Shown piece after piece: positions 5,313 to 30,993 of a stretch of DNA of 64,000 nucleotides. Both the position numbers and the translations under genes were made by a program. Positions within the stretch are counted from its first letter, which is position 1; the number at the start of each line of letters is the position of its first letter. The notes under the pieces were generated by a model, which did not search any database, was not told the DNA's origin, and worked only from the letters and a program-made list of their open reading frames with translations. Origin of the DNA: an uncultured Candidatus Peribacteria bacterium (GTDB lineage: Bacteria > Patescibacteriota > Gracilibacteria > Peribacterales > Peribacteraceae); contig CAZWNJ010000001.1 of the NCBI GenBank assembly GCA_964635215.1, positions 254,741-318,740 on the forward strand, given 5' to 3'.

Positions 5313-6488
5313 TTAATGCGAGATATTACCAACGACACTGTAAATCGGCGTCAGAATGGCGAAGGCAATGAAACCGACGAGTCCACCGATGAAGAGCAGG
5401 AGCATCGGCTCCAGCACGACCGGCAGTTTCTGGGCGGTTTCGGCCGCCTTGCGGTCATAGATGTCGGCGATCTTCAGGAGAATCTGGGCGAGCGTGCCCG
5501 AGCGTTCACCAACGACGATGAGCGACGTCACTGACACGGGCAGGAGCTTGCGGCTGGCCTTCAATTCCGCGAAGCACTTCTGGAACGACTGGCCGAGCGT
5601 GATCTCTTCAGTCATGCGGGCGTAGAGATCCTTATACGTCAATACACTCGTCACGTCGGTGAGCGAGCGCATCGCCTCAGTGAGGGGAACTCCAGCTTGC
5701 AGAAGGCCACCGAGGATGACGCCGAAGCGGGCGATTGTGGCTGAGCGGGCCAATGGCCCGATGCCCGGTGTGGCGAAGACCAGCCACTGCAGCGATCGGC
5801 GCATCGGCGTCCAGAGGGCGTTGAGCACGACGATCGTCAGCAGGCCGCCGATACCGATCGCGATGACGAGAGAGCCGTGGTTCGACGAGAAGTCCGCGAA
5901 GGCGATAAGAACACGTGTGGCGAGCGGGAGCGGGGCGTTGAGCGAGATGAGCACTTGCACAAGGTTCGGCAGGACGAAGACGCCGAGGATGATGACCATT
6001 GCCACCACGAGCACGATGACGATTGCGGGGTAGATCATGGCCATCTTCACTTTGGATTTCAGCTCGCTGTCCTTGTCCTGTTGCACGGCCAGGTAGGCCA
6101 TGTTGCGCGCGAGTGTGCCCGCCTCTTCGCCGATGCGCACGAGGGCGATGGCGTAGGTGGTGAAGAAGTGCTGTTCGTCCATCGCCACCCACAGTGGCGT
6201 GCCGCTCTCGACTGATTCCAAAATCTTCTTCACGATCTTTTTCATCGGCTTCACCGTCGTTTCTTCCAGCACGGTCTCCAGGGCGTCCACGAGCGGCAAG
6301 CCGGCATTGAGCAGCGTCCCCATGTTCTCGATGAACATCGTTCGCTCGCGGCCCATGCCGATGTAATTGAGTGACGTGAGGAAGCTCGTGAGTTTGCTGT
6401 CGACTTTCTTCTTGGGCGCGACGGCGAGAGTGGCGGTGGTGACCGCGGCAGGAGTGGGGGCGGCCGGCGCGGGGAGGGTCTCAGCCAT
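5313..6488 (-). CDS. pilC: type IV pilus assembly platform protein (GspF/PilC family)
   Basis: 391 aa with two T2SS-F repeats and three TM segments. Sequences such as FIENMGTLLNAGLPLVDAL and LLQAGVPLTEAM are typical of PilC. Confidence 0.9.
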   Translation of the reverse strand: MAETLPAPAAPTPAAVTTATLAVAPKKKVDSKLTSFLTSLNYIGMGRERTMFIENMGTLLNAGLPLVDALETVLEETTVKPMKKIVKKILESVESGTPLWVAMDEQHFFTTYAIALVRIGEEAGTLARNMAYLAVQQDKDSELKSKVKMAMIYPAIVIVLVVAMVIILGVFVLPNLVQVLISLNAPLPLATRVLIAFADFSSNHGSLVIAIGIGGLLTIVVLNALWTPMRRSLQWLVFATPGIGPLARSATIARFGVILGGLLQAGVPLTEAMRSLTDVTSVLTYKDLYARMTEEITLGQSFQKCFAELKASRKLLPVSVTSLIVVGERSGTLAQILLKIADIYDRKAAETAQKLPVVLEPMLLLFIGGLVGFIAFAILTPIYSVVGNISH

Positions 6489-6491
6489 GGA

Positions 6492-8309
6492 TTAGACGCG
6501 AGGCGGGGTGGGCTTTTGGGTCTTCGGGGCGGCCAGCGGCTCGGGTGGGGCGGCGACGCGCAGGAGCTCCTCAAGACTTGTGACACCGCGCTTCACCTTC
6601 TCGAAGCCGTCTTCAAAGAGCGTAGCCATGCCCTGGCGGCGGGCGAGGTCATTGATGTCGGAACTGCTCGCGCGTTTTACGATCAGCTCTTCCATCTCGG
6701 GTGTGATCTGGAGTACTTCGTAGATGCCGACGCGGCCGCGGTAGCCGGTCTGGCTGCAGCGCTCACAGCCTTTACTGCGATAGAGGAGAAGACGCCCGTC
6801 GGCGGGAAAGAGGCTGTCGCCAGCCAGCGGGAAGAGTGTGCGGGCTTCCTCGCGCGAGACCATCGCGGTGTAGCGGCAGTGTGGGCAGAGGCGGCGAACG
6901 AGGCGCTGGGCCACCACCACCTCGAGCGTCGAGGCGACGAGGTAGGGTTCGACGCCCATGTCGAGCAGGCGCGGGATGGCTGTGGCAGCATCGTTGGCGT
7001 GGAGCGTCGAGAGCAGAAGGTGGCCGGTCAGGGCGGCGTTCACAGAGATCGATGCCGTCTCGCCATCACGGATTTCACCGACGAGGACGATGTCTGGGTC
7101 CTGGCGGACGAGTGAACGCAGACCCGAGGCGAACGTGAGGTTGGCCTTGGGGTTTACCTGAATATGGTTCACACCGGGCACCTTGTATTCCACTGGATCT
7201 TCGATGGTGGAGATATTCACATCAGGATGGTTGCGGAGCTTCACGAGGGCATAGAGCGTCGTCGACTTACCGGCGCCGGTCGGACCGACCGTGAGCAGCA
7301 TGCCGAAGGGTTGGAAAGCGGCTTTCTTCAGCACTTCCTGCTGTTTCTCAGAGAAGCCGAGATCGTCCAGGGTGATCGTACGGACATAGGCCGAGAGCAC
7401 GCGCATCACCACCTTCTCGCCGTCTACGATCGGGACAATCGAGACACGCACATCCATCGTTTCACCGTTGCTCACCACGCGTAGTGCCCCGTCTTGGGCG
7501 GCGTAGTGTTCGTCGATGCGCATGTTGCCTTCGATCTTGATGCGGTTCACGACGCCTTCGTACTGTTCCCTCGGCAGGCGACCGACTTCATGAAGCACGC
7601 CGTCCACACGGAAGCGGACGACGACGTGTTTTTCCTGAGGTTCAAAGTGGATGTCCGAGGCGCGCAGCTGGAAGGCATCGCTGATGATCTCCTGGAGGAG
7701 GATCGGAGCAGGCTTCTGCTTCTCGCTGATGATCTCCTGAAAGCGCGACGCGAGGGGCTTACGGTAGTGCGCGAGGAGCGAATCGATGGACGATTGCGGG
7801 ACGTAGACGAAGCGGATGGCGCCGATGAAGCGCTGTCGCTCGGCGGCCTTGCTGCGTCCAAGACTGAGAAGCGAGTCCAGCGGGCCAGCCGCCTTGGGGG
7901 CAGTGACTTCGGGCGAAGCGCCTTCGGGCAAGATGCCTTCCGCTTGGTCGATATTTTGACGCAGGGCTTCCTCCAGATTTTCACGCGTGGGATCGGGAGT
8001 GGCGACGGTTACACCAGCAGCGTCGCGGGCAACCACAACGCACAAGAACGTCCGTGCCACATTCTCTGGCAGGGCGGCGATGAGTTCAGGCGTGATGTCG
8101 GCGTGCTCAATGTCGAAGTGAGCGAGCTGAAAATGCTCGGCCATCGCGCTCTCGAGGAGTTCTTGGGTGAGGAGTCCGAGTTCGAAGAGCGCCGCTTTGA
8201 GTGACAGTTCATGTTGTGATGCGTGTTCTTCAGCACGCTTTAAATCCTCTGGCGAGAGGTAGTTTTGCTTGATGAGGAGCTGGCCGAGATCAGTGTCGGT
8301 GAAGGCCAT
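6492..8309 (-). CDS. pilB: type IV pilus assembly ATPase (GspE/PilB family)
   Basis: Walker A LLTVGPTGAGKSTTLYA, Asp box, Walker B DIVLVGEIRD, His box and tetracysteine motif CPHC...CERC. N-terminal MshEN-like domain. Confidence 0.93.
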   Translation of the reverse strand: MAFTDTDLGQLLIKQNYLSPEDLKRAEEHASQHELSLKAALFELGLLTQELLESAMAEHFQLAHFDIEHADITPELIAALPENVARTFLCVVVARDAAGVTVATPDPTRENLEEALRQNIDQAEGILPEGASPEVTAPKAAGPLDSLLSLGRSKAAERQRFIGAIRFVYVPQSSIDSLLAHYRKPLASRFQEIISEKQKPAPILLQEIISDAFQLRASDIHFEPQEKHVVVRFRVDGVLHEVGRLPREQYEGVVNRIKIEGNMRIDEHYAAQDGALRVVSNGETMDVRVSIVPIVDGEKVVMRVLSAYVRTITLDDLGFSEKQQEVLKKAAFQPFGMLLTVGPTGAGKSTTLYALVKLRNHPDVNISTIEDPVEYKVPGVNHIQVNPKANLTFASGLRSLVRQDPDIVLVGEIRDGETASISVNAALTGHLLLSTLHANDAATAIPRLLDMGVEPYLVASTLEVVVAQRLVRRLCPHCRYTAMVSREEARTLFPLAGDSLFPADGRLLLYRSKGCERCSQTGYRGRVGIYEVLQITPEMEELIVKRASSSDINDLARRQGMATLFEDGFEKVKRGVTSLEELLRVAAPPEPLAAPKTQKPTPPRV

Positions 8310-8315
8310 GGATGG

Positions 8316-8894
8316 TTAGAGCGGGAAATCTTCGGAACTGGCGGGAGCCTGTGTTTCCGGTGGCGCTTCGGCGGCCTCCTCAGATGCGGTGGCTTCCTCA
8401 GCGGGTGCATCAGCTTCCGGCGCTGGCTCAGGCGCTGGCTCTTCCTCTGGTTCGGACGGAGCGTCGCCGAGGGTTTTGTGAATGATCGCGACAATGGTCT
8501 TGAGCGGCACATTGGATTTTACGAGGTAGTCGAGTGCGCCGAGCCCCTTGGCACGGACGCGGTCTTCCTCCTGGCCAAGATTGCTTAAGACGATAATGGG
8601 CGTGGTGATGGTGCCTTTGAGTTTTTCGAGGATGCTGAATCCGTCGAGCTCCGGCAGGATCATGTCGAGGAGGATCAGCTTGAATTGGCCGCTTTGAGCC
8701 TGGGCCAATCCCTCCGAACCCGTGACAGCGAGTGTCACGTCGTAGCCCTCATGCGTGAGTTTCAACTGCAGCGCGTGTCCGAGCGGTCGTTCATCTTCGA
8801 CGATGAGAATCTTCGTCTTTCCGCCGCCGCTGACTGGAGCGGTGCTGAGCAAGCCGGCCGGCGTAGGGGTCTGAGGGGTGTTTGTGTTCTCCAT
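8316..8894 (-). CDS. receiver-only response regulator with acidic Pro/Glu-rich C-terminal tail
   Basis: KILIVEDERPLG...LILLDMILPELDG...IIVLSNLG...DYLVKS gives the full CheY-like D-D-T-K set. The tail is PSEPEEEPAPEPAPEADAPAEE. I prefer the ATG at 8894 (MENTNT); the ORF-track start at 8927 is a TTG lying inside the recR terminator. Confidence 0.85.
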   Translation of the reverse strand: MENTNTPQTPTPAGLLSTAPVSGGGKTKILIVEDERPLGHALQLKLTHEGYDVTLAVTGSEGLAQAQSGQFKLILLDMILPELDGFSILEKLKGTITTPIIVLSNLGQEEDRVRAKGLGALDYLVKSNVPLKTIVAIIHKTLGDAPSEPEEEPAPEPAPEADAPAEEATASEEAAEAPPETQAPASSEDFPL

Positions 8895-8924
8895 GAAGCC
8901 CAAAACTATCTCTATAGTATAGCA

Positions 8925-8957
8925 CAAAAACGTCGGGTCTCCAAGTCACACCGACGG
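8925..8957 (-). terminator. rho-independent terminator after recR
   Basis: On the minus strand, stem CGTCGG (8951-8956 paired with 8931-8936) is followed by TTTTTG (8926-8930 on the plus strand). Confidence 0.6.
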
Positions 8958-8993
8958 GCGATTCTTTAGCATCTGTCTGCGGAAAAAACTTAC

Positions 8994-9590
8994 TCAGAGC
9001 GCCCGTCTGCCGCTCAGGGCCTCGCGGAGCGTCACTTGGTCGGCGAATTCGATGTCCGCGCCCATTGGGAGTCCGTGGGCGAGGCGGGTGATCTTACCAA
9101 CGAGCGGCGCGAGTTGCTCGCGCAGGTAGCTGGCTGTGGCCTCACCTTCGATATCGGGGTCGGTGGCGATGATCACTTCGTTCACGCCGCCCCGACGAAT
9201 GCGGTCGAGGAGTTCGCGGATTTTCAGTTGTTCGGGGCCAAGACCGTCGATCGGGGAGAGGACGCCATGGAGGACGTGGTAGCGCCCTTTGTATCCCGAG
9301 CGTTCGAAGGCGATGACTTCGAGTGGCTCCTCCACCACGAGCACCATCGCCGGGTCACGCGCGGCGTCTTGGCAGATCGGACAGAGACTGTCGACGGCGA
9401 CCATCTGGCACTCCTGGCAGTACTTCAAATTCCGCTTTAGCTCAATCAGGGCTTGGCCGAGGGTTTCGGGCGAAGCACGTGAGCTGCGAAGCAGGTGAAA
9501 CGTCAGGCGTTCGGCCGATTTGGGGCCGATTCCCGGTAGTTTCTGCAGTTCTTCGATGGCCCGGTGGATCTGTGGCGGTAGGAGCGACAC
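8994..9590 (-). CDS. recR: recombination protein RecR
   Basis: HhH motif LQKLPGIGPKSAERLTFHLL, C4 zinc finger CQECQ...CPICQ and Toprim domain VLVVEEPLEVIAFE...EVIIATDPDIEGEATA. A GTG at 9590 gives a typical 198-aa RecR and leaves room for the divergent promoter. The ORF track extends the frame to an ATG at 9662. Confidence 0.9.
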   Translation of the reverse strand: MSLLPPQIHRAIEELQKLPGIGPKSAERLTFHLLRSSRASPETLGQALIELKRNLKYCQECQMVAVDSLCPICQDAARDPAMVLVVEEPLEVIAFERSGYKGRYHVLHGVLSPIDGLGPEQLKIRELLDRIRRGGVNEVIIATDPDIEGEATASYLREQLAPLVGKITRLAHGLPMGADIEFADQVTLREALSGRRAL

Positions 9591-9660
9591 GGGCGCAGAA
9601 TAGCAGGTCAGACGATGATGTATTTGCGTCAAAATTGAGTTCTGTCTAGAGTCTCTCTCC

Positions 9661-10758
9661 ATGCCTCCTCAGCCCGCACCTCTCGGTCAGCTCTCACATG
9701 CGCAGTTCGATGACGCGCTGCTCGCGAGCAATCTCGAGCACTGCGCCTGGCACACTGCGCCCGTCCGCCGCGAGCCGACCTACACCGAGCTTCAATTCTC
9801 CGAGTTTGTGCAGGCTCGTTTACGCTCCGCGCTGCAGGACGATACGGTTCGCCGCGAGTTGAGTGAGCGCCATCACTTGCCGGTGCAGGATCTCGTCCGC
9901 GAAGACCTCTCTGGTCGGCGGAAGTTCATGCGGCACTTCTACTACGAGCTCATCATGCAGGCGACGAAGCGTCACACGCGGATTACCTCGCGTGAACAGA
10001 TGCTCAGCAGTATTCGGCAGGATCTTTGGAATGTATCGGCCGGTTACATCGTTATGGATCAGCCGTCGCATCCGCTTTGGACGATGGGGACGAGTGGGAC
10101 ATCGCCCTCGGGCAAGCCCGTTCGTATCATGGACCCGACGCGAGCTGACCGACGCTTTGCTGCTCAGCTTCACGGCAGTGGCCAGAAATTCCAACCTGGT
10201 CCGGACGGTCCTGTGACGACATTGATCGAGCGTGCCCTTCCAGAACTGCTCACGCGTCATGAAGACTGTCGCATCATTCAATACTGCTTGCCACTGCGAC
10301 AGCGTCTTCTCGAACTTGTCGGTGGAGCGACACATCTCTCGATTGAGACACAGACGGAGTGCATCAACGAGATTGTGGCAGCGTGGGTCGACGTCATTCC
10401 TCCCAACGATGAACACACGCTCAAACAAGCCGAAGAGAAGACGGGTGTGAGTCGCAATGATGCGATTGCAGATATTGAACGTGCACTCGTACAACCGTAC
10501 GTGACGGCGCCTGGTGGCGATCGCGTCTGGCTGGCGACGCTCGAGGAGCGCACGCTGCTGGCCGCCGCCGATCGGCGCCAACAGGAGTACGACGACCTGC
10601 TTGCGGTGTGGGAGCGGGCACTGAAGCGCTCCACTGTTCCGCCGTGCACACGTCCATCGCTCGGACTCGCGTATCTGGCGATCTCCGCCAAGCAGAAGGA
10701 GGCGGCTGACTTCCTCGGTCGCATTCGTATTCTCCCCGACGAGACGACGGCTTCCTGA
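9661..10758 (+). CDS. hypothetical protein (orphan, no motif recognised)
   Basis: 365-aa ORF with an ATG start and strong third-position G/C bias in this frame. The competing minus-strand ORF 9820-10581 looks Arg-rich and antisense-like. Confidence 0.6.
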   Translation: MPPQPAPLGQLSHAQFDDALLASNLEHCAWHTAPVRREPTYTELQFSEFVQARLRSALQDDTVRRELSERHHLPVQDLVREDLSGRRKFMRHFYYELIMQATKRHTRITSREQMLSSIRQDLWNVSAGYIVMDQPSHPLWTMGTSGTSPSGKPVRIMDPTRADRRFAAQLHGSGQKFQPGPDGPVTTLIERALPELLTRHEDCRIIQYCLPLRQRLLELVGGATHLSIETQTECINEIVAAWVDVIPPNDEHTLKQAEEKTGVSRNDAIADIERALVQPYVTAPGGDRVWLATLEERTLLAAADRRQQEYDDLLAVWERALKRSTVPPCTRPSLGLAYLAISAKQKEAADFLGRIRILPDETTAS

Positions 10759-11193
10759 TCAGATCTCCCGCCCCTCCCGCAGGCGACGACTTTCGTCGCG
10801 CGCGCGAATGACCTGGCGACGGTCAGCCTTCTTGCGCCCCTTCGCGACGCCGAGGACGAGCTTGATGTACCGGCCGACTTTCAATTCGAGCGGGATGATC
10901 GTCACGCCTTTTTCCTGACTGAGCGACTGCAGTCGCTCGACTTCGCGTTTGTGTAGGAGCAACGGACGGCGGCGCTTGGGGTCGTAGTCCGTCGTGTCGG
11001 CGTACTTGTACGGAGCGATCATGAGCTGTGCGATCTCCGGTTGGCCGCCGGGGAAGACGACGTAGGCGCCGGCGAATTGCACCTGCCCCGCGCGGCACGA
11101 TTTCACCTCGGGGCCAGTTAAACGCAGTCCGGCTTCTACGGTCTCGAGGATCTCGTAGTCGAAGCGAGCGCGGCGGTTATTCACGGTCTTCAC
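10759..11193 (-). CDS. smpB: SsrA-binding protein
   Basis: NRRARFDYEILETVEAGLRLTGPEVKS...LLLHKREVERL and the basic C-terminal tail are typical of SmpB. Confidence 0.93.
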   Translation of the reverse strand: MKTVNNRRARFDYEILETVEAGLRLTGPEVKSCRAGQVQFAGAYVVFPGGQPEIAQLMIAPYKYADTTDYDPKRRRPLLLHKREVERLQSLSQEKGVTIIPLELKVGRYIKLVLGVAKGRKKADRRQVIRARDESRRLREGREI

Positions 11194-11231
11194 CGCAACA
11201 CTCTATAGGGAACCGCTCTTTGAGCGTACAA

Positions 11232-11259
11232 TTGACAGAATATATTTCTGTTCTACCAT
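11232..11259 (+). promoter_or_regulatory. sigma70-like promoter; predicted start site coincides with the ATG at 11266 (possible leaderless mRNA)
   Basis: TTGACA (11232-11237), 16-nt spacer, TACCAT (11254-11259). The ATG lies 7 nt downstream and has no Shine-Dalgarno. Confidence 0.45.
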
Positions 11260-11265
11260 CGAACC

Positions 11266-12036
11266 ATGCCTCGGAAACACGACTTAGAATTAGCGATTTG
11301 GACCGTCCGCCTGGAGGGGGATCAAGAGCGACTGACGCCTCAGCCAGCTGTGACCGTGCACGAAGACGGTGGTCGCGAACGCCTGGAGCATCAGGCTGTT
11401 TTCGGACTTCCGAGCATTCTTGTCATTCGCGAGGGAATCGCCGAATGCGTGCGCAGTTCCATGACTCGCCGTAGGCGAATGCAAAAAGAAATCTCCCAGC
11501 TCTCGGGCTCGCTTGTGCAGCGGACGCTTCAGCGGTCTGGATTACCTCAATCCTTTGTGAATAACATGGCCGATTCCGAGATGCATCTCACCGCGCGGCT
11601 CCATCTGCCTGATCCCGTTGAGACACAGCGGATTGATGCCACGGTGAACAATGTCGTCGAGACAGCGATCAGTTCGGTGCTCAAGAGCGGAGATGTCGCA
11701 CCTGACGACGTTTCAGCGCGAGCAATACATCTGGAAAACATCCAACACATTCTCTTCGCCACCAACTATCTAGAGCCCAAGGATCGGCATCACGCGACCA
11801 TCCATATTCGCCAACAGACAGACCTCTATGAGGCGATTGGCACCGTGGTGAATGAATTTCGCCTCGATCTGGCGCCGTTTGTCGCGATGGCCGAAGAGGC
11901 CGGTGTCCCCATGGGGGCCGGCGATATTCGTCATTTGATGATCCAATCTGCACAGGAGACCATTGGCCAAGTGAGCGATATCATTGCTAGAACCGCCCTT
12001 CTGCAGCTTATTCTTCGTACTCTTGATAAAGATTGA
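11266..12036 (+). CDS. hypothetical protein (orphan)
   Basis: 256-aa ORF with an ATG start and a consensus-like promoter immediately upstream. No motif recognised. Confidence 0.6.
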   Translation: MPRKHDLELAIWTVRLEGDQERLTPQPAVTVHEDGGRERLEHQAVFGLPSILVIREGIAECVRSSMTRRRRMQKEISQLSGSLVQRTLQRSGLPQSFVNNMADSEMHLTARLHLPDPVETQRIDATVNNVVETAISSVLKSGDVAPDDVSARAIHLENIQHILFATNYLEPKDRHHATIHIRQQTDLYEAIGTVVNEFRLDLAPFVAMAEEAGVPMGAGDIRHLMIQSAQETIGQVSDIIARTALLQLILRTLDKD

Positions 12037-25154: not shown

Positions 25155-25356
25155 GGCCTAAGCCTATCAGAGCGCGGTCGCCAAGGGGCGACCAATTCGC
25201 TAGCCTTTTGCCATCGCCCGCCTCTACTACGAAATCCTCCCGCCGGCTTTCAAGAAATTCTCCGTCCTGACGGCGGGGCGCACCTTATTGCCCACACTTG
25301 GGTATTACCTGCGCCGGCCGATACTGCCACCCAGTGAAAAGCTGCCGCTCTTCACC

Positions 25357-26241
25357 ATGAACATCCTTCCCCCGATGGGACGGGTGTGGCTGCACTACGC
25401 TAAGAAGTACCTGGGTGACAATGTCGACATCACGATCTTCGACTGCTCGGGACGGCTCAATCCGGCCGACTTTCCGGGGGCGACGGTGCAGCCGTTTCTC
25501 AACTTCTATGCCGCGACGAAGAGTGACGAATTCCTCTATCACATCGCCAAGAACCGTCGTCACGGTTGGATCTGTGACGACGACGTCTTCTTTGTGAGCG
25601 ACGAGTCGCTCCACGTTCTAAAGCGTGAGTTCGCCGTGCCCGGCACGGCCTCGGTGAGCCTTCGCCCGCGCAACTGGTGGGAGTTCCAGATCGACGGTCA
25701 GACGTACCCTGTCTCGGGGAGCTACTCCATTGCCTTCGACCGCGAGATCTTCTGCAAAAAAGAACACCTGTCGCTTCGACCGGCCGACGGCAACACGCAC
25801 CGGTCGCTCAACGGCAAGGATTTGAAGCGCTACGACACGGGCGACCTGAGCAACGAACTGCTCATCCGCCGCGGGTACCGTTGCTACGTCAGTCCGCCCG
25901 ACGAGAGCAAGCGCTGCATCGCGGCCTTCTCGGGGCTCAGCGGCGCGGTCATTCTGCTTTGGCTCTTCAAGCGTCCCGAGCAGGTGCTGGACTACTTCGA
26001 ATCCCCGCCCAAGGAGAGCTGGAGCGGGACGATGCTCTTCGGCCTTCTCTCCTCCATGCTCGCGATCTGGACGATTCAGGATCTGCACGAGAAGATCACG
26101 GGCAAACCCTACCCTCTGCCGTCTCTGCCGCCACGTCAGGCCCTGGAACGGATCGCCAAAGAAGCGGCCCCGTACCTGCCCACCGGGTCGGATTTCCGTT
26201 GGATCGAAGAGGTGCGGGAGCAGCTACTGAAGGCGCTCTAA
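25357..26241 (+). CDS. hypothetical protein, possible DxD glycosyltransferase
   Basis: ATG at 25357 (MNILPP); the ORF-track start at 25288 is a TTG. Contains the DxD-like WICDDDVFF. Sits inside a glycan gene neighbourhood. Confidence 0.6.
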   Translation: MNILPPMGRVWLHYAKKYLGDNVDITIFDCSGRLNPADFPGATVQPFLNFYAATKSDEFLYHIAKNRRHGWICDDDVFFVSDESLHVLKREFAVPGTASVSLRPRNWWEFQIDGQTYPVSGSYSIAFDREIFCKKEHLSLRPADGNTHRSLNGKDLKRYDTGDLSNELLIRRGYRCYVSPPDESKRCIAAFSGLSGAVILLWLFKRPEQVLDYFESPPKESWSGTMLFGLLSSMLAIWTIQDLHEKITGKPYPLPSLPPRQALERIAKEAAPYLPTGSDFRWIEEVREQLLKAL

Positions 26242-27159: not shown

Positions 27160-27471
27160 ATGCCCGTCAAACGCGCCCACCTCAACGACTTCGCCAAGCT
27201 CCTGGCCTCGGTCCGGACATCGGCCGAGAGTGCCCGGCTCTTGGAAGATCTGCTGACGCCGCAGGAGCACGAGGAACTGGCCCGTCGGTGGCAGATCGTG
27301 CAGATGCTCTGGCGGCGTATGCCGCAGCGCGACATCGCCAAAAAGCTGAAGGTGAGCGTCAGTAAGATCACGCGCGGCTCGCGAGCGATGCAGTACGGAT
27401 CGGGCGGATTTGAACTCTTCTTGAAGCGCCTCAAAAAGCCGCGCACGCCGCCGCGCGGGATACGCTCATAA
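27160..27471 (+). CDS. TrpR-like YerC/YecD family DNA-binding protein
   Basis: LEDLLTPQEHEELARRWQIVQMLWRRMPQRDIAKKLKVSVSKITRGSRAMQYGSGGFELF closely follows the YerC/YecD pattern. Confidence 0.85.
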   Translation: MPVKRAHLNDFAKLLASVRTSAESARLLEDLLTPQEHEELARRWQIVQMLWRRMPQRDIAKKLKVSVSKITRGSRAMQYGSGGFELFLKRLKKPRTPPRGIRS

Positions 27472-27588
27472 CCGACGCGGGTGATGCAATAACCTGGGTA
27501 TTCCTTGGGGCTACTTTGGCCTAATTTGACATACCCCACCTTAGGTATCCCGCTATCCTTTTGGGGCGTTTTCTGCTATTCTGTACAG

Positions 27589-27906
27589 ATGGCACAAACT
27601 CTCCTTGTCCTTCTTCAGAACTCCCACTCCCTTTCGGACGCGGATAAACAGAGGCTCTCGGAGCAACTGCCGCTGATGACAGTCGAAGAGCAGCAGTCTT
27701 TGGAGGGCGCGCTGATGAAAGAGGCTGCCAGAGTGAAACAAATCGAAGATCAACACCAAAGCCAGTCGCACATCTTGAATGAGGAATACGAGCGGACAGT
27801 ATCGGACTTCAAAACGCATACCCTCAAAACCATCCGCAGCTCCACCGAACAGAACAAGCGCACGGAAGAGATGCAAAAAATAGACGAGGCGCTTAACTCT
27901 GCCTGA
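27589..27906 (+). CDS. hypothetical coiled-coil protein (low-GC island)
   Basis: 105-aa Gln/Glu-rich helical ORF with an ATG at 27589. It is co-oriented with the 942-aa gene and ends 20 nt before it. The ORF-track start 27505 adds a hydrophobic extension that I consider less likely. Confidence 0.5.
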   Translation: MAQTLLVLLQNSHSLSDADKQRLSEQLPLMTVEEQQSLEGALMKEAARVKQIEDQHQSQSHILNEEYERTVSDFKTHTLKTIRSSTEQNKRTEEMQKIDEALNSA

Positions 27907-27926
27907 CGTGCCTACGGCGCTCTGCT

Positions 27927-30755
27927 ATGGAAAATCGAGACATCACCCCTGGCGAAGTGAAAGAAACCGCGCAATCGGAGGTGAAACCGGATAAGGAGAA
28001 GAAGCCGGATGCCAAGCCCATTGACGGCGCGCGGGTGCGTAATGACGTGGCAGAAGTGCTTAGTAAATTGGACTATCTGCAGCGCGACGTTCAGGAGGAT
28101 GTCGTGAAGGATTTTCGGGCCAAACTGGATGCTATCCGTCAAAAATTCCAAAAACTCGATGAGACAAAAGTGGATGCCCTACGCGAGTTGGAGAAAGAGA
28201 TGTACAAAGAATTCAGTCCGTTTCTTAAGAAAGCCGCCCAATCGCAGTTGAGCAAGTGCAAGAACATTCAGAAGGTGACATTTGAGAAGAGGGGGATGAA
28301 CTTTACATTCGGTGGCCAAACGATGTCAGCCGAGCTGACCGATCTTTATGAAATTCGATCGGTGCAAATCCTCGGCGCGACGGTGCGATTTCAGAAGCCA
28401 GTGCAGCTGAAAGACTTTGACAATCGTATGGGTAATAATTTATTGGCATCGCTCCAGCTCATCGCTAAACGCTTTGATCCGAAGGGAATGGAGATTCTTG
28501 CTACGGAATTGTGGTACGAATTCACGGCAAAGGACGATGGCAAAGAGAGGCAGTTTGTCGCTACTCCGCAGGATGTCCTCGAGGTGACGCAGGTACCAAC
28601 AGCTGAGAAAGTCCAGGAATGGAGAAATGCTCTAAAGGATTTGAATGCCATCCAAAAGCGTATGGAGGAGACTGAGCGGTCCATGCGAGAGGCGTTCAAA
28701 GACACGGACGTGATGATAAAAATGCAGATAAATGGGACATCCGGCATCGACGTGAGCAAGTTCACTCCAGAACAGAAGAAGATCTGGGATGCGTTTCAGG
28801 CACTCCGAAAAGAATTCGGTGTTGCCGCAGAGAAGGAGCGTTCGCTGCGTCGCGAGTGTGGTACACGTATGTTGAAAACCAAAGACGGCACTCAAGTTCG
28901 TGAGGAAAGTGATCCTGAGTGGAAATTTAGTTTCCAATGGGTCTATCTCAACAAGGACGGCAAAGAACAAACGCGGCTTTCTTGGTCAGGCTTTCGGTAT
29001 AGGGGGAAAACGGAGTACGAGTATGAAAAGGGAGAGCCAGTACGGCAGACGTATTTCAGCGAAACTGGTCAGCCGGAATACATGAGGGATTTTCGCTCGG
29101 GGACGTCAGATATCTATGACAAGAAGGGGAAGAAATCATATCGCGAACTTTTTGATTTGGAGAAGCCCGATATTCGCATCGGAACACAAATGTACGATGC
29201 CGAAGGCAGGCTGATGGACGAGAGGGCGTTGCAGGCCATGACTCCTGCGCAAATTGAGGCATTCTTCCTTCCGCTGTTAGCGCAGGAGGATTTTCGCGCG
29301 CAAAGAGTAGCCATTGATGCGTGTTATACGGCAGCAAAGTACATCATCAAGTGTCCTCGTGGTGAAGAAATTATGCGCAGAGTTGTACTCAGCAGCACAT
29401 TGGTAGCCTTCGAAGAGTTCACGAAGTACAAGGATGCGCCGTATGCCGTGAAACTGCTGGAGGAGGCCGCATACCAGATCGAGGATAAGGAAGTTGTAAC
29501 GAGAATGGTGAATGATGCCACGAAAGTGCCAGGACTCTCAGAGGGCGATAAAAAGCGCATTATTGCAATGGCCGGGAGAAAGAAAGTGAATACACCGCTC
29601 GCCGAAAAACTCCTATCAATTGATCAACAGCCACAGCGAGCGCGGTTGCTGGAAGATCCCGGTTTGAGAGACTGGTCTGAGGTAAAGGAAGAATGGATCG
29701 ATTGGAGGAAGCTGAAATCTCCGGCGAGCGGCGAGAAGCAAGCAGCGGTATGGAAATTACAAATGCGGGCGATGATCGCTAGAAATCTCTATTTCCAGAA
29801 TCTAGAAGTGAACGAGGCGAACGTGAAAAAGGAATTCTTGCGGATCGTTGAGACGAGGGAAAAATATTCTACGCTGAAGGTGTTTAAAGGCAGGAATGTT
29901 CTGCATGCTGCACACACCGAATTGATCCGAGATGTTAAAAAGCTTGATGGCAAGCTCTTCACCGATGAGCAATATCAAGAATGGGAGAAGGCATCCGAAG
30001 ATCCACATCGCTTTGGGAAAAAGGGAACCCAGGACGCGATCAAAAAACAGCAAGATGGAGAAGGTACCTATGAAATGCTTCGTCCCGCAAAAAATCTAGA
30101 AGCTCTGCAGAAGGCCAAGGAGGATATTCTGCAGAAAATAAAAACCATGGGGCCGCCTTCAACGTTTATTTTTGATGGGCATGGCGGACCAGATGCGTGG
30201 TATTTGTCTGATGGCACCGTTTCTGGAACGGCGAAGGCTGGTACTGTGAATGAGACAGATACAACAGTGAAAATTTCCGTAGAAGAACTGGCGCAAGCCT
30301 TAGTTGAAAGAGCAAAGAAATTTCCCCAATTACGAACAAATGATCCGAGCAAGAAAGATATATTCATCTTCGCCTGTTGTTATAACACCAATTTTATCCG
30401 CAGCCTGTATATGCAGATGGGTGATGCGCCAAAGCCAATTGCCCTGGGAGCGTCCGAGTATGGTCAGTATGGCTACTCCAAACTTGGCTCAATACATGGC
30501 AGCCGTTTCTTCTCCGAAATATTACAATTAGAGAAAAACAAAAAAACTCACATTAATCCTGTGAGTCCCTCGAGAAAACAGCTCATTATTCATGAAGCTG
30601 CGAAGCGACCAACCGTAATTTCCGATGTTTTTGAGAACGAATTTAGTGACGATTCCAATCCAAGTCTCTACATACCGGACGATAAGAACCTGCCTATGCA
30701 AATAACGAGGGATGATGGGGATCATGGCAATAGAGACAACACTCAGGGTGCATGA
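27927..30755 (+). CDS. large orphan protein with C-terminal clan CD (legumain/caspase-fold) cysteine peptidase-like domain
   Basis: 942 aa with an ATG start in a low-GC region. C-terminal STFIFDGHGGPDAWYL then, 65 aa later, DIFIFACCYNTNF matches the strand-His-Gly / strand-Ala-Cys dyad of family C13-like peptidases. The N-terminal 730 aa contain coiled coils and YD/MORN-like hairpins. No signal peptide. Confidence 0.8.
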   Translation: MENRDITPGEVKETAQSEVKPDKEKKPDAKPIDGARVRNDVAEVLSKLDYLQRDVQEDVVKDFRAKLDAIRQKFQKLDETKVDALRELEKEMYKEFSPFLKKAAQSQLSKCKNIQKVTFEKRGMNFTFGGQTMSAELTDLYEIRSVQILGATVRFQKPVQLKDFDNRMGNNLLASLQLIAKRFDPKGMEILATELWYEFTAKDDGKERQFVATPQDVLEVTQVPTAEKVQEWRNALKDLNAIQKRMEETERSMREAFKDTDVMIKMQINGTSGIDVSKFTPEQKKIWDAFQALRKEFGVAAEKERSLRRECGTRMLKTKDGTQVREESDPEWKFSFQWVYLNKDGKEQTRLSWSGFRYRGKTEYEYEKGEPVRQTYFSETGQPEYMRDFRSGTSDIYDKKGKKSYRELFDLEKPDIRIGTQMYDAEGRLMDERALQAMTPAQIEAFFLPLLAQEDFRAQRVAIDACYTAAKYIIKCPRGEEIMRRVVLSSTLVAFEEFTKYKDAPYAVKLLEEAAYQIEDKEVVTRMVNDATKVPGLSEGDKKRIIAMAGRKKVNTPLAEKLLSIDQQPQRARLLEDPGLRDWSEVKEEWIDWRKLKSPASGEKQAAVWKLQMRAMIARNLYFQNLEVNEANVKKEFLRIVETREKYSTLKVFKGRNVLHAAHTELIRDVKKLDGKLFTDEQYQEWEKASEDPHRFGKKGTQDAIKKQQDGEGTYEMLRPAKNLEALQKAKEDILQKIKTMGPPSTFIFDGHGGPDAWYLSDGTVSGTAKAGTVNETDTTVKISVEELAQALVERAKKFPQLRTNDPSKKDIFIFACCYNTNFIRSLYMQMGDAPKPIALGASEYGQYGYSKLGSIHGSRFFSEILQLEKNKKTHINPVSPSRKQLIIHEAAKRPTVISDVFENEFSDDSNPSLYIPDDKNLPMQITRDDGDHGNRDNTQGA

Positions 30756-30903
30756 AATCGTCCAGTGGCGACCCGACTCTCGGGAGTATGCAAAATATAA
30801 ACGCGAGTTCAATTTTGTGATTGGATTCTTCCCCTGAAGGAAGGCCAGTCTTTGAGCGCCGCACTGACTTCCGATGCACATTGCCGCGGCAAAGCCTTCG
30901 AGC

Positions 30904-30993
30904 TGGCGGAGAGGGGGGGATTCGAACCCCCGAGACCCTTGCAGGTCTACGCGCTTTCCAAGCGCGCGCACTAGGCCACTATGCGACCTCTCC
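30904..30993 (-). tRNA. tRNA-Ser (anticodon GGA), long variable arm, CCA encoded
   Basis: The reverse complement reads GGAGAGG TC GCA TAGTGGCCTAG TGC G CGCGC TTGGAAA GCGCG T AGACCTGCAAGGGTCT C GGGGG TTCGAAT CCCCC CCTCTCC G CCA. Confidence 0.9.

Follow-up and report, generated by a model that had tools for sequence, protein, structure and literature searches.

The window analysed here is a 64,000-nucleotide stretch from the genome of an uncultured Candidatus Peribacteria bacterium (GenBank assembly GCA_964635215.1, contig CAZWNJ010000001.1), and the gene under study is a large open reading frame (ORF) on the forward strand (27927–30755; all coordinates are window positions unless a locus is named), which runs from ATG to stop (stop included) and encodes 942 amino acids, just as an earlier reading of the sequence (the original prediction) had stated. 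On balance, we favour the explanation that this ORF belongs to a two-gene cassette, in which a small helical partner is followed by a large modular protein, probably made in the cytoplasm, that ends in a clan CD cysteine peptidase domain. Judging from the structural model, the C-terminal domain very likely has the clan CD (caspase–hemoglobinase) fold, and the conservation pattern makes it likely that His752 and Cys818 form its functional pair; that the domain is an active peptidase is predicted with more reserve, as probable. A fair statement is that this is a new sequence family with the fold and motif of clan CD, and that it is not family C13 by sequence.

The C-terminal domain and its putative catalytic residues

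We modelled residues 560–942 with AlphaFold from a 28-sequence alignment, and the resulting structure is a confident one (predicted local distance difference test score (pLDDT) 85.5, predicted template modelling score (pTM) 0.87). It contains the conserved C-terminal module of the protein (residues 570–930, positions 29634–30716, forward strand), in which a helical sub-domain (residues 570–650, with an ARNLYFQ helix) is followed by the caspase-fold core (residues ~650–930). Here, the core strands are found at residues 657–662, 715–718, 745–750, 812–816, 838–841, and 913–915, with helices between them, and His752 is placed two residues past the third strand and Cys818 two residues past the fourth. 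In the model, both residues are at the C-terminal ends of two adjacent central strands, which is their arrangement in clan CD. Read along the sequence, the third strand leads through TFIFDG into the proposed catalytic histidine and its glycine (His752-Gly753, forward-strand positions 30180–30185, with the CAT codon at 30180–30182), and the fourth leads through DIFIFA(C) into the proposed nucleophile, Cys818 (TGT, 30378–30380, forward strand). The two peptides quoted in the original prediction, PSTFIFDGHGGPDAWYL and KKDIFIFACCYNTNFIRSLY, are both present in the protein, and its description of one strand followed by His-Gly and of another followed by a Cys motif, (Ser/Ala)-Cys in the family, holds, as each motif comes after a hydrophobic strand in the manner of clan CD.

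A Foldseek search of the PDB with this model returned, as the best match, the caspase-like domain of Raptor (7ux2_A, E-value 1.3e-4; also 6u62, 7uxc, 6bcu, and 6zpn), followed by PIGK/GPI8 (8imy_K, E-value 4.8e-4), and then by caspases-1, 3, 6, 7, 8, and 11 (E-values 1e-3 to 5e-2, probability 0.9–1.0). In fact, 49 of the top 50 matches are caspase-fold proteins, the exception being 3wrx_B, a helicase complex. A search of the independent BFVD library likewise had giant-virus caspase, metacaspase, and clostripain entries on top. The structural comparison that had been proposed as a check on the clan CD assignment thus came out in its favour, with caspase–hemoglobinase folds returned almost exclusively from both libraries. 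The domain combines a caspase-like α/β fold around a central sheet with a His-Gly that precedes the Cys, each right after a hydrophobic strand, and these are among the marks by which clan CD is recognised.

To count conserved residues, we used an alignment of the 155 members that cover at least 60% of the C-terminal module, in which the mean column identity of the family is ~15%. His752 is found in 154 of the 155 members, Gly753 in 148, and Cys818 in 154 of 154, and such retention of His and Cys (~99% of members) in so divergent a family goes beyond chance. Nearly as constant is Glu844 (153 members; 30456–30458, forward strand), which is part of a SEYGQ motif just past strand 838–841 and is a candidate substrate-pocket residue. 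Arg619 (151), Thr746 (149), Arg656 (146), and Glu665 (140) are highly retained as well. The last strand of the domain (model residues 354–356) is carried by the motif NPSLYIPD (residues 911–918, positions 30657–30680, forward strand), in which N911 is kept by 128 of the members, P912 by 115, and P917 by 137. Of the 155 members, only 17 have Cys at position 817, which had originally been put forward as the nucleophile, while 55 have Ser there, 29 Ala, and 19 Gly. Because this position varies and Cys818 next to it does not, the conserved motif is (S/A/G)-C818, and the Cys817 of the window protein (TGT, 30375–30377) is, by the alignment, an extra cysteine just ahead of the conserved one. The histidine of the proposed dyad therefore stands, and its cysteine is displaced by one residue.

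Searched as a single sequence, the 942-residue protein gave only coiled-coil noise in Pfam, NCBIfam, PADLOC, PHROGs, and the PDB sequences. At the profile level, Peptidase_C25 (gingipain, PF01364) aligned with residues 710–823 of the window domain, a stretch that spans both the His and the Cys, at 12.9 bits (E-value 0.066) and below its threshold of 23 bits. Among 59 members, the same profile appeared below threshold in two (best E-value 0.0075), and Peptidase_C13 (PF01650) also in two (best E-value 0.086); the latter was absent for the window protein, and C13, originally named as the closest textbook match, is not sustained by sequence. Peptidase_C14 (PF00656) and CHAT (PF12770) had no match in the 4 + 59 + 56 members scanned, so that, of the families originally named for checking, C13, C14, C25, and CHAT had no Pfam match at threshold. 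The NCBIfam model caspase_w_EACC1 matched one member (E-value 0.0095), below its cut-off, and PHROGs had no match for either cassette protein. Since none of the sequence profile comparisons with Pfam, NCBIfam, PADLOC, PHROGs, or the PDB is significant, we consider this to be a previously undescribed family of a clan that is already known. The best PDB profile match, which was to the ARNLYFQ helix, was rejected as a remnant of the tobacco etch virus (TEV) protease site (ENLYFQG) of expression tags, such spurious matches arising because ARNLYFQ resembles that site. The motif itself (residues 618–624, positions 29778–29798) is near-invariant in the family, and its likeness is to the TEV protease site ENLYFQ(G/S).

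We also aligned the family profile by hhalign with the single sequences of caspase-3, legumain, and caspase-7, of which the first two were verified against PDB entries (caspase-3 is identical to 7xn4_A, and legumain matches 7fqh_A except in the signal-peptide region and at two substitutions taken as engineered). In the best alignments, which are not significant (P 0.04–0.2), the GHG of the family lies on SHG or DHG and its sC on QAC or EAC. These non-significant alignments pair His752 with caspase-3 His121 and legumain His148, and Cys818 with caspase-3 Cys163 and legumain Cys189.

When compared with clan CD as a whole (C14, C13, C11, and C25), the family is alike in its top structural neighbours, in the order of His before Cys, and in having both motifs after hydrophobic strands. 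Moreover, a hairpin and a helix lie between the two motifs both in caspases (SHG...IYG.DG...helix...QAC) and in the family (GHG...YLSDG...helix...sC). There are, however, several deviations: the His–Cys spacing of the family is longer (66 residues), and an extra conserved helical sub-domain (residues 570–650, with Arg619) and a C-terminal NPS.YIPD strand are added. By topology, Glu665 and Glu844 would take the places that are held by Arg179 and Arg341 in caspases and by Asp in metacaspases. With respect to the C13 enzymes GPI8/PIGK and legumain, position 663, where the first strand ends, is His or Asn in the family and would correspond to Asn42 of legumain, whereas the EACESG motif and the C-terminal prodomain of legumain are missing, and so is any signal peptide or membrane context.

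Spread and modular build of the family

A word-indexed search with the 942-residue protein found one homologue, P0002, which is 66% identical and is encoded on a metagenome contig of 4.4 kb (locus L001). Between the two genes, the proportion of nonsynonymous differences (pN) is 0.17 and that of synonymous differences (pS) 0.79 (saturated), which argues for purifying selection on the large gene. Two further relatives, 42% and 36% identical along the last ~500 residues, came from a scan of species-representative genomes, and both belong to metagenome-assembled genomes (MAGs) titled 'uncultured Candidatus Peribacteria bacterium'; the class Peribacteria is placed within Candidatus Peregrinibacteriota. 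The locus scans gave only three (metagenome) and two (genome) loci, because their back-translated patterns are specific to close relatives. When an alignment of four sequences was used as the query, 28 proteins were recovered, and an exhaustive HMMER scan of 1.84 billion representatives revealed 350 clusters (defined at 50% identity) at E ≤ 1e-3, of which 250 remain at E ≤ 1e-10 and 86 at E ≤ 1e-30. The protein is therefore not the orphan that it was first taken for. The region common to the 350 clusters corresponds to residues ~570–930 of the window protein, i.e., its C-terminal ~360 residues. A scan of viral contigs found no relatives, and the sole source name attached to the family entries, 'Uncharacterized protein', comes from a MAG of Candidatus Peregrinibacteria.

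Eight members (P0023, P0083, P0092, P0093, P0116, P0121, P0122, and P0137) have Trp at positions where Gly is otherwise conserved, as if they had been called with genetic code 4. Furthermore, the gene at locus L012 (3706–4700, metagenome contig Ga0214923_10024184) has in-frame TGA codons exactly on conserved glycines (e.g., SEY-TGA-Q), and is uninterrupted when read with genetic code 25. These two observations together mean that the family reaches lineages related to Peregrinibacteria in which UGA encodes Gly. So far, it is confined to Peregrinibacteria-type lineages of the Candidate Phyla Radiation (CPR), a group of bacteria with tiny genomes and much coding capacity without assigned function. 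A literature search combining Peregrinibacteria or Gracilibacteria with caspase, or CPR with clan CD, found nothing relevant.

The caspase-like module is always at the extreme C-terminus (median tail of one residue), and the regions ahead of it are 1 to 1194 residues long, with a median of 331. A hydrophobic 19-mer precedes the domain in only 5 of 159 members, and the other 154 have neither a signal peptide nor a transmembrane segment; the N-terminus of the window protein is hydrophilic by direct reading, in line with the original description. Pfam recognised almost nothing in the N-terminal regions besides sporadic TPR or HEAT repeats. One UGA-recoded member (P0023, 792 residues, on a 2.9-kb Joint Genome Institute (JGI) contig) has a CUE domain (PF02845, E-value 1.5e-12) upstream of the caspase-like module, CUE being a ubiquitin-binding module typical of eukaryotes.

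In the window protein, two regions precede the conserved module. The N-terminal module (residues ~1–450, 27927–29276, forward strand) is predicted to be built of long helices and β-hairpin repeats, and the helical region that follows it (residues ~451–569, 29277–29633, forward strand) is common to the shorter Peribacteria homologues, those of L003 and L004 aligning from residues ~427–456 onward. A motif of this helical region, AFEEF.KYKD.PYAVKLLEEAA, is repeated several times in P0012. A full-length AlphaFold model based on a two-sequence alignment was set aside as unusable (pLDDT 38.7); its long helices at residues 34–120 and 226–312, strands at 313–354, and helices from 432 onward agree with the succession of helix, hairpin, and helix that had been sketched for this part of the protein. 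Residues ~313–428 (28863–29210) contain YD-repeat-like strings (YLNKDGKEQ, IYDKKGKKSY, and MYDAEGRLMDE) that recall Rhs/YD or MORN-type repeats, and no Pfam repeat family was matched by the β-hairpin run. The same overall build is found in P0002–P0005, P0029, P0009, and P0010.

Two other proteins, P0033 (32% identity; L018:2052–4802) and P0040 (30%; L017:491–3436), share the N-terminal ~450 residues of the window protein and then continue into a different C-terminus. As these residues occur with another C-terminus, they form an independent evolutionary unit. The alternative C-terminus (P0033 residues ~480–640) carries GDCEDWAFL, HAEC(F/V)W, and GTFGLD motifs ahead of TPRs, and from these motifs a Cys-His-Asp (transglutaminase/papain-like) site is possible; no Pfam, PDB sequence, or profile match was found for the transglutaminase/papain-like reading.

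The small partner is an all-helical protein of 105 amino acids, encoded on the forward strand at 27589–27906, and its gene ends 20 nucleotides (nt) before the large ORF. Homologues of it are directly upstream of the large gene at four other loci, namely L001 (50% identity), L005 (29%), L017 (30%), and L018 (35%). Here, the partner gene of L017 precedes P0040, the start of which it overlaps, and that of L018 precedes P0033, from which it follows that the partner travels with the N-terminal module, whichever C-terminus is attached. In keeping with its place, the gene is absent from the examined loci whose family member has another N-terminus. The protein matches no Pfam, NCBIfam, PADLOC, or PHROG family. 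Upstream ORFs of 72–73 residues in L014 and L016 were considered as further homologues and, their similarity being marginal at best, were not counted.

A short N-terminal motif, R-L-[ILV]-x-F/Y ('EHRLIAF'), is found within the first 45 residues of 14 of 141 full-length members, where 1.8 would be expected; this pattern was chosen post hoc. Its carriers are P0002–P0006, P0018, P0036, P0040, P0069, P0106, P0117, P0141, P0160, and P0161, and they include members with unrelated N-terminal regions. The window protein (27927–27956) has a degenerate version, MENRDITPGE, where its homologue in L001 has MENRLLAFNE. This motif might be a docking or sorting signal.

Proposed working and alternative explanations

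As an endopeptidase, the domain would act through Cys818, activated by His752. Glu665, past the first core strand, and Glu844, past the fifth, may line an S1 pocket, and a pocket of such acidic character would favour cleavage after Arg or Lys, as in metacaspases, gingipains, and clostripain-like enzymes. The variable N-terminal region would select the target or the location, and in the sub-family with the N-terminal module of the window protein it would bind the small partner, which could serve as a chaperone, an adaptor, or an inhibitor.

Several points weigh against this view of the domain. No clan CD profile in Pfam or NCBIfam is significant for the family, and profile searches of the PDB sequences brought up no genuine match, whether the alignment used had 4, 59, or 12 sequences. 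The TM-scores from Foldseek are modest, at 0.53 or less when normalised to the target, in part because the query has an extra helical sub-domain of ~90 residues; the E-values are 1e-4 to 1e-2, and the top match, Raptor, is a non-catalytic caspase-like domain. The placement of His752 and Cys818 was read from the secondary-structure string of the model, and the predicted preference for Arg or Lys is drawn from topological analogy only. Finally, one member, P0006 (L008:3259–4971 and L009:10001–11713), has Asp where the catalytic His would be (FDMDGSDAG), while its Cys is kept; going by this substitution, it may be an inactive paralogue.

Taken at their strongest, the non-significant profile comparisons and low TM-scores would mean that His-Gly and Ala-Cys are fortuitous motifs in an unrelated α/β fold. 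We consider this very improbable, as the two residues are near-invariant across the family, two structure libraries independently rank caspase-fold proteins first, and both the order of the strands and the positions of His and Cys are those of the clan. It is also unlikely that the fold is put to a non-proteolytic use, whether as a Raptor-like scaffold or pseudo-enzyme or as a transamidase or ligase in the way of GPI8 and the plant legumains, even if the structural search ranked Raptor and PIGK/GPI8 highest and P0006 has lost its His. The retention of His and Cys argues for chemistry at the site, and nothing comparable to the membrane anchoring or partner subunits of the glycosylphosphatidylinositol (GPI) transamidase complex is found. 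Raptor resembles the window protein in that its RNC domain is likewise a caspase-like domain within a large multi-domain protein with helical repeats; however, Raptor is eukaryotic, and its domain is N-terminal and has no known catalysis, whereas the domain of the family is C-terminal and its dyad near-invariant.

Caspase-fold proteases with large sensor-like regions act in prokaryotic defence systems, and an anti-phage or abortive-infection effector, akin to the CHAT/caspase-like proteases of type III CRISPR, cyclic-oligonucleotide-based (CBASS), and gasdermin systems, would fit the foreign composition of the window copy, the patchy distribution of the family, and its variable N-termini. This established precedent notwithstanding, such a role appears quite unlikely: no PADLOC model matches either cassette protein, neither CHAT nor Peptidase_C14 is matched, no relatives occur on viral contigs, and at ~13 loci there is no cyclase, CRISPR, gasdermin, or NTPase partner. 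With these results and with neighbourhoods that are mostly housekeeping, the original suggestion of a defence or host-interaction effector is left unsupported. A polymorphic effector directed at a host or prey cell has some plausibility all the same, at a level well below that of the two-gene cassette ending in a peptidase domain as such. The N-terminal module and the partner would then be a delivery-competent complex and the C-terminus an exchangeable warhead, caspase-like here and Cys-His-Asp in P0033 and P0040, which the episymbiotic Peregrinibacteria/Gracilibacteria would export by an unrecognised route. One N-terminal module on two unrelated C-termini, a small helical partner gene that always comes right before the large one (and in L017 overlaps its start), a caspase-like module joined to many different N-termini, and the tandem paralogues of L005 all speak for it, together with signs of mobility: an insertion sequence (IS) fragment at L001, relaxase, transposase, and LPD7 genes at L019, and the low GC content at third codon positions (GC3) of the tRNA-adjacent window copy. 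Set against these are the 154 of 159 members with neither signal peptide nor transmembrane segment, the lack of a secretion-system gene consistently nearby at the loci examined, and the lack of a downstream immunity-like gene in the window, where a tRNA follows instead; moreover, that the alternative C-terminus is a protease is read from a motif, for which Pfam and the PDB gave no support.

Polymorphic toxin cassettes with small helical partners are known, for example, LXG toxins with their Lap proteins. The likeness of our cassette to these is architectural only, and consists of an upstream helical protein of ~100 residues, a conserved N-terminal helical module, and an apparently exchangeable C-terminus. 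Unlike such cassettes, the family lacks any LXG, WXG100, Rhs, or PAAR profile match, nearby secretion genes, and a downstream immunity gene. An effector role is possible for the window protein, as its modular build and small partner leave room for it. Doubtful, and worth stating as a conjecture, is the wider proposal that Peregrinibacteria and their UGA-recoded relatives (of the Gracilibacteria/Absconditabacteria type) have a polymorphic effector system of their own, exported to cut host or prey proteins. Its parts, just as doubtfully, would be a lineage-specific delivery module, a helical chaperone of ~105 residues, and interchangeable protease warheads (the new clan CD family and the Cys-His-Asp domain).

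For the preferred explanation, a partner gene followed by a modular protein with a terminal peptidase domain, the kind of enzyme is one already known, and no new kind of mechanism is revealed at present. The family itself is in no curated library (Pfam, NCBIfam, PADLOC, or PHROGs) and has no solved relative that is detectable by sequence. A fold and a probable chemistry, that of a caspase-type Cys/His peptidase, can now be given to at least 350 sequence clusters that none of these libraries names, and the family is seen to be built of shuffled modules with a dedicated small partner. It could add a family to clan CD, and in CPR bacteria it is a concrete candidate for regulated proteolysis or for an attack on host cells.

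Composition and surroundings of the cassette

The cassette occupies positions 27472–30903 and is compositionally foreign in its host genome. Across 28–31 kb of the window, the GC content falls to 0.48–0.49 from ~0.61 around it, and the interior of the cassette has GC 0.48–0.52 and GC3 0.53–0.65. The large gene has GC 0.479 and GC3 0.531, and the small upstream gene GC3 0.651, against GC3 of 0.76–0.85 in six neighbouring genes; as GC3 is low too, the low GC is not an effect of amino-acid content. On the far side of the large ORF, 148 nt downstream, is a tRNA-Ser(GGA) gene on the reverse strand (30904–30993; ARAGORN, and Rfam tRNA at 54.4 bits), with its 3' end towards the cassette, so that the original description of the gene as compositionally foreign and tRNA-linked was accurate in both respects. 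On the near side, the cassette is flanked by a TrpR/YerC-YecD-type repressor gene of native composition (27160–27471; Pfam Trp_repressor, E-value 5.6e-23), which is directly upstream.

Elsewhere, family genes are 0–9 GC points below their surroundings, in genomes of 38%–63% GC, and the window copy is the extreme, at ~13 points below. Its GC of 0.479 is close to that of the L001 copy (0.471), and this match is consistent with recent transfer from a relative of ~50% GC. The cassette was probably acquired laterally, and would have reached its ~61% GC genome from such a ~50% GC relative. Among the marks of a tRNA-targeted integrative island, only the odd composition and the tRNA adjacency are present, and an integrase and a direct repeat are missing. 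In fact, no integrase gene lies between 27472 and 30903, the 24 nt of the tRNA 3' end occur once when up to three mismatches are allowed, with no direct repeat at the distal border, and no att-like repeats were found to flank the cassette. An Rfam scan of the cassette had the tRNA as its sole match, and a scan for promoters and terminators gave counts at the level of shuffled sequence.

At ~13 distinct loci, the neighbours of family members are mostly housekeeping genes (DnaK, GAPDH, CCA-adding enzyme, tRNA synthetases, PNPase, thymidylate synthase, MetK, and DprA), with no defence genes near any of them and no recurrent partner besides the small upstream gene. At the loci examined, there were neither secretion genes nor a recurrent, immunity-like gene downstream, the window having its tRNA-Ser there. 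Hints of mobility are seen at three loci. The closest homologue (L001) adjoins an ISAs1-type transposase fragment (DDE_Tnp_1_assoc, E-value 4.8e-17), and P0010 (1054 residues; L019:39–12354, JGI 3300020774 contig Ga0206948_1190) is in an apparent conjugative or mobile-element region, together with a 1474-residue HTH-DEAD/ResIII helicase, relaxase/TraI fragments, a DDE_3 transposase, LPD7, and an SMC-like ATPase. The third is L005 (GCA_964648045.1, CAZYNU010000014.1), at which two full-length members, P0003 and P0004, are in tandem (5888–8704 and 8779–11562) between the genes for GAPDH and an AP endonuclease, with a single small-partner gene ahead of them. Lastly, the window gene at 25288–26241, three genes upstream of the family member, has 50–70% identity to the gene directly upstream of P0006 at both L008 and L009, and members of the family may therefore recur in this region.

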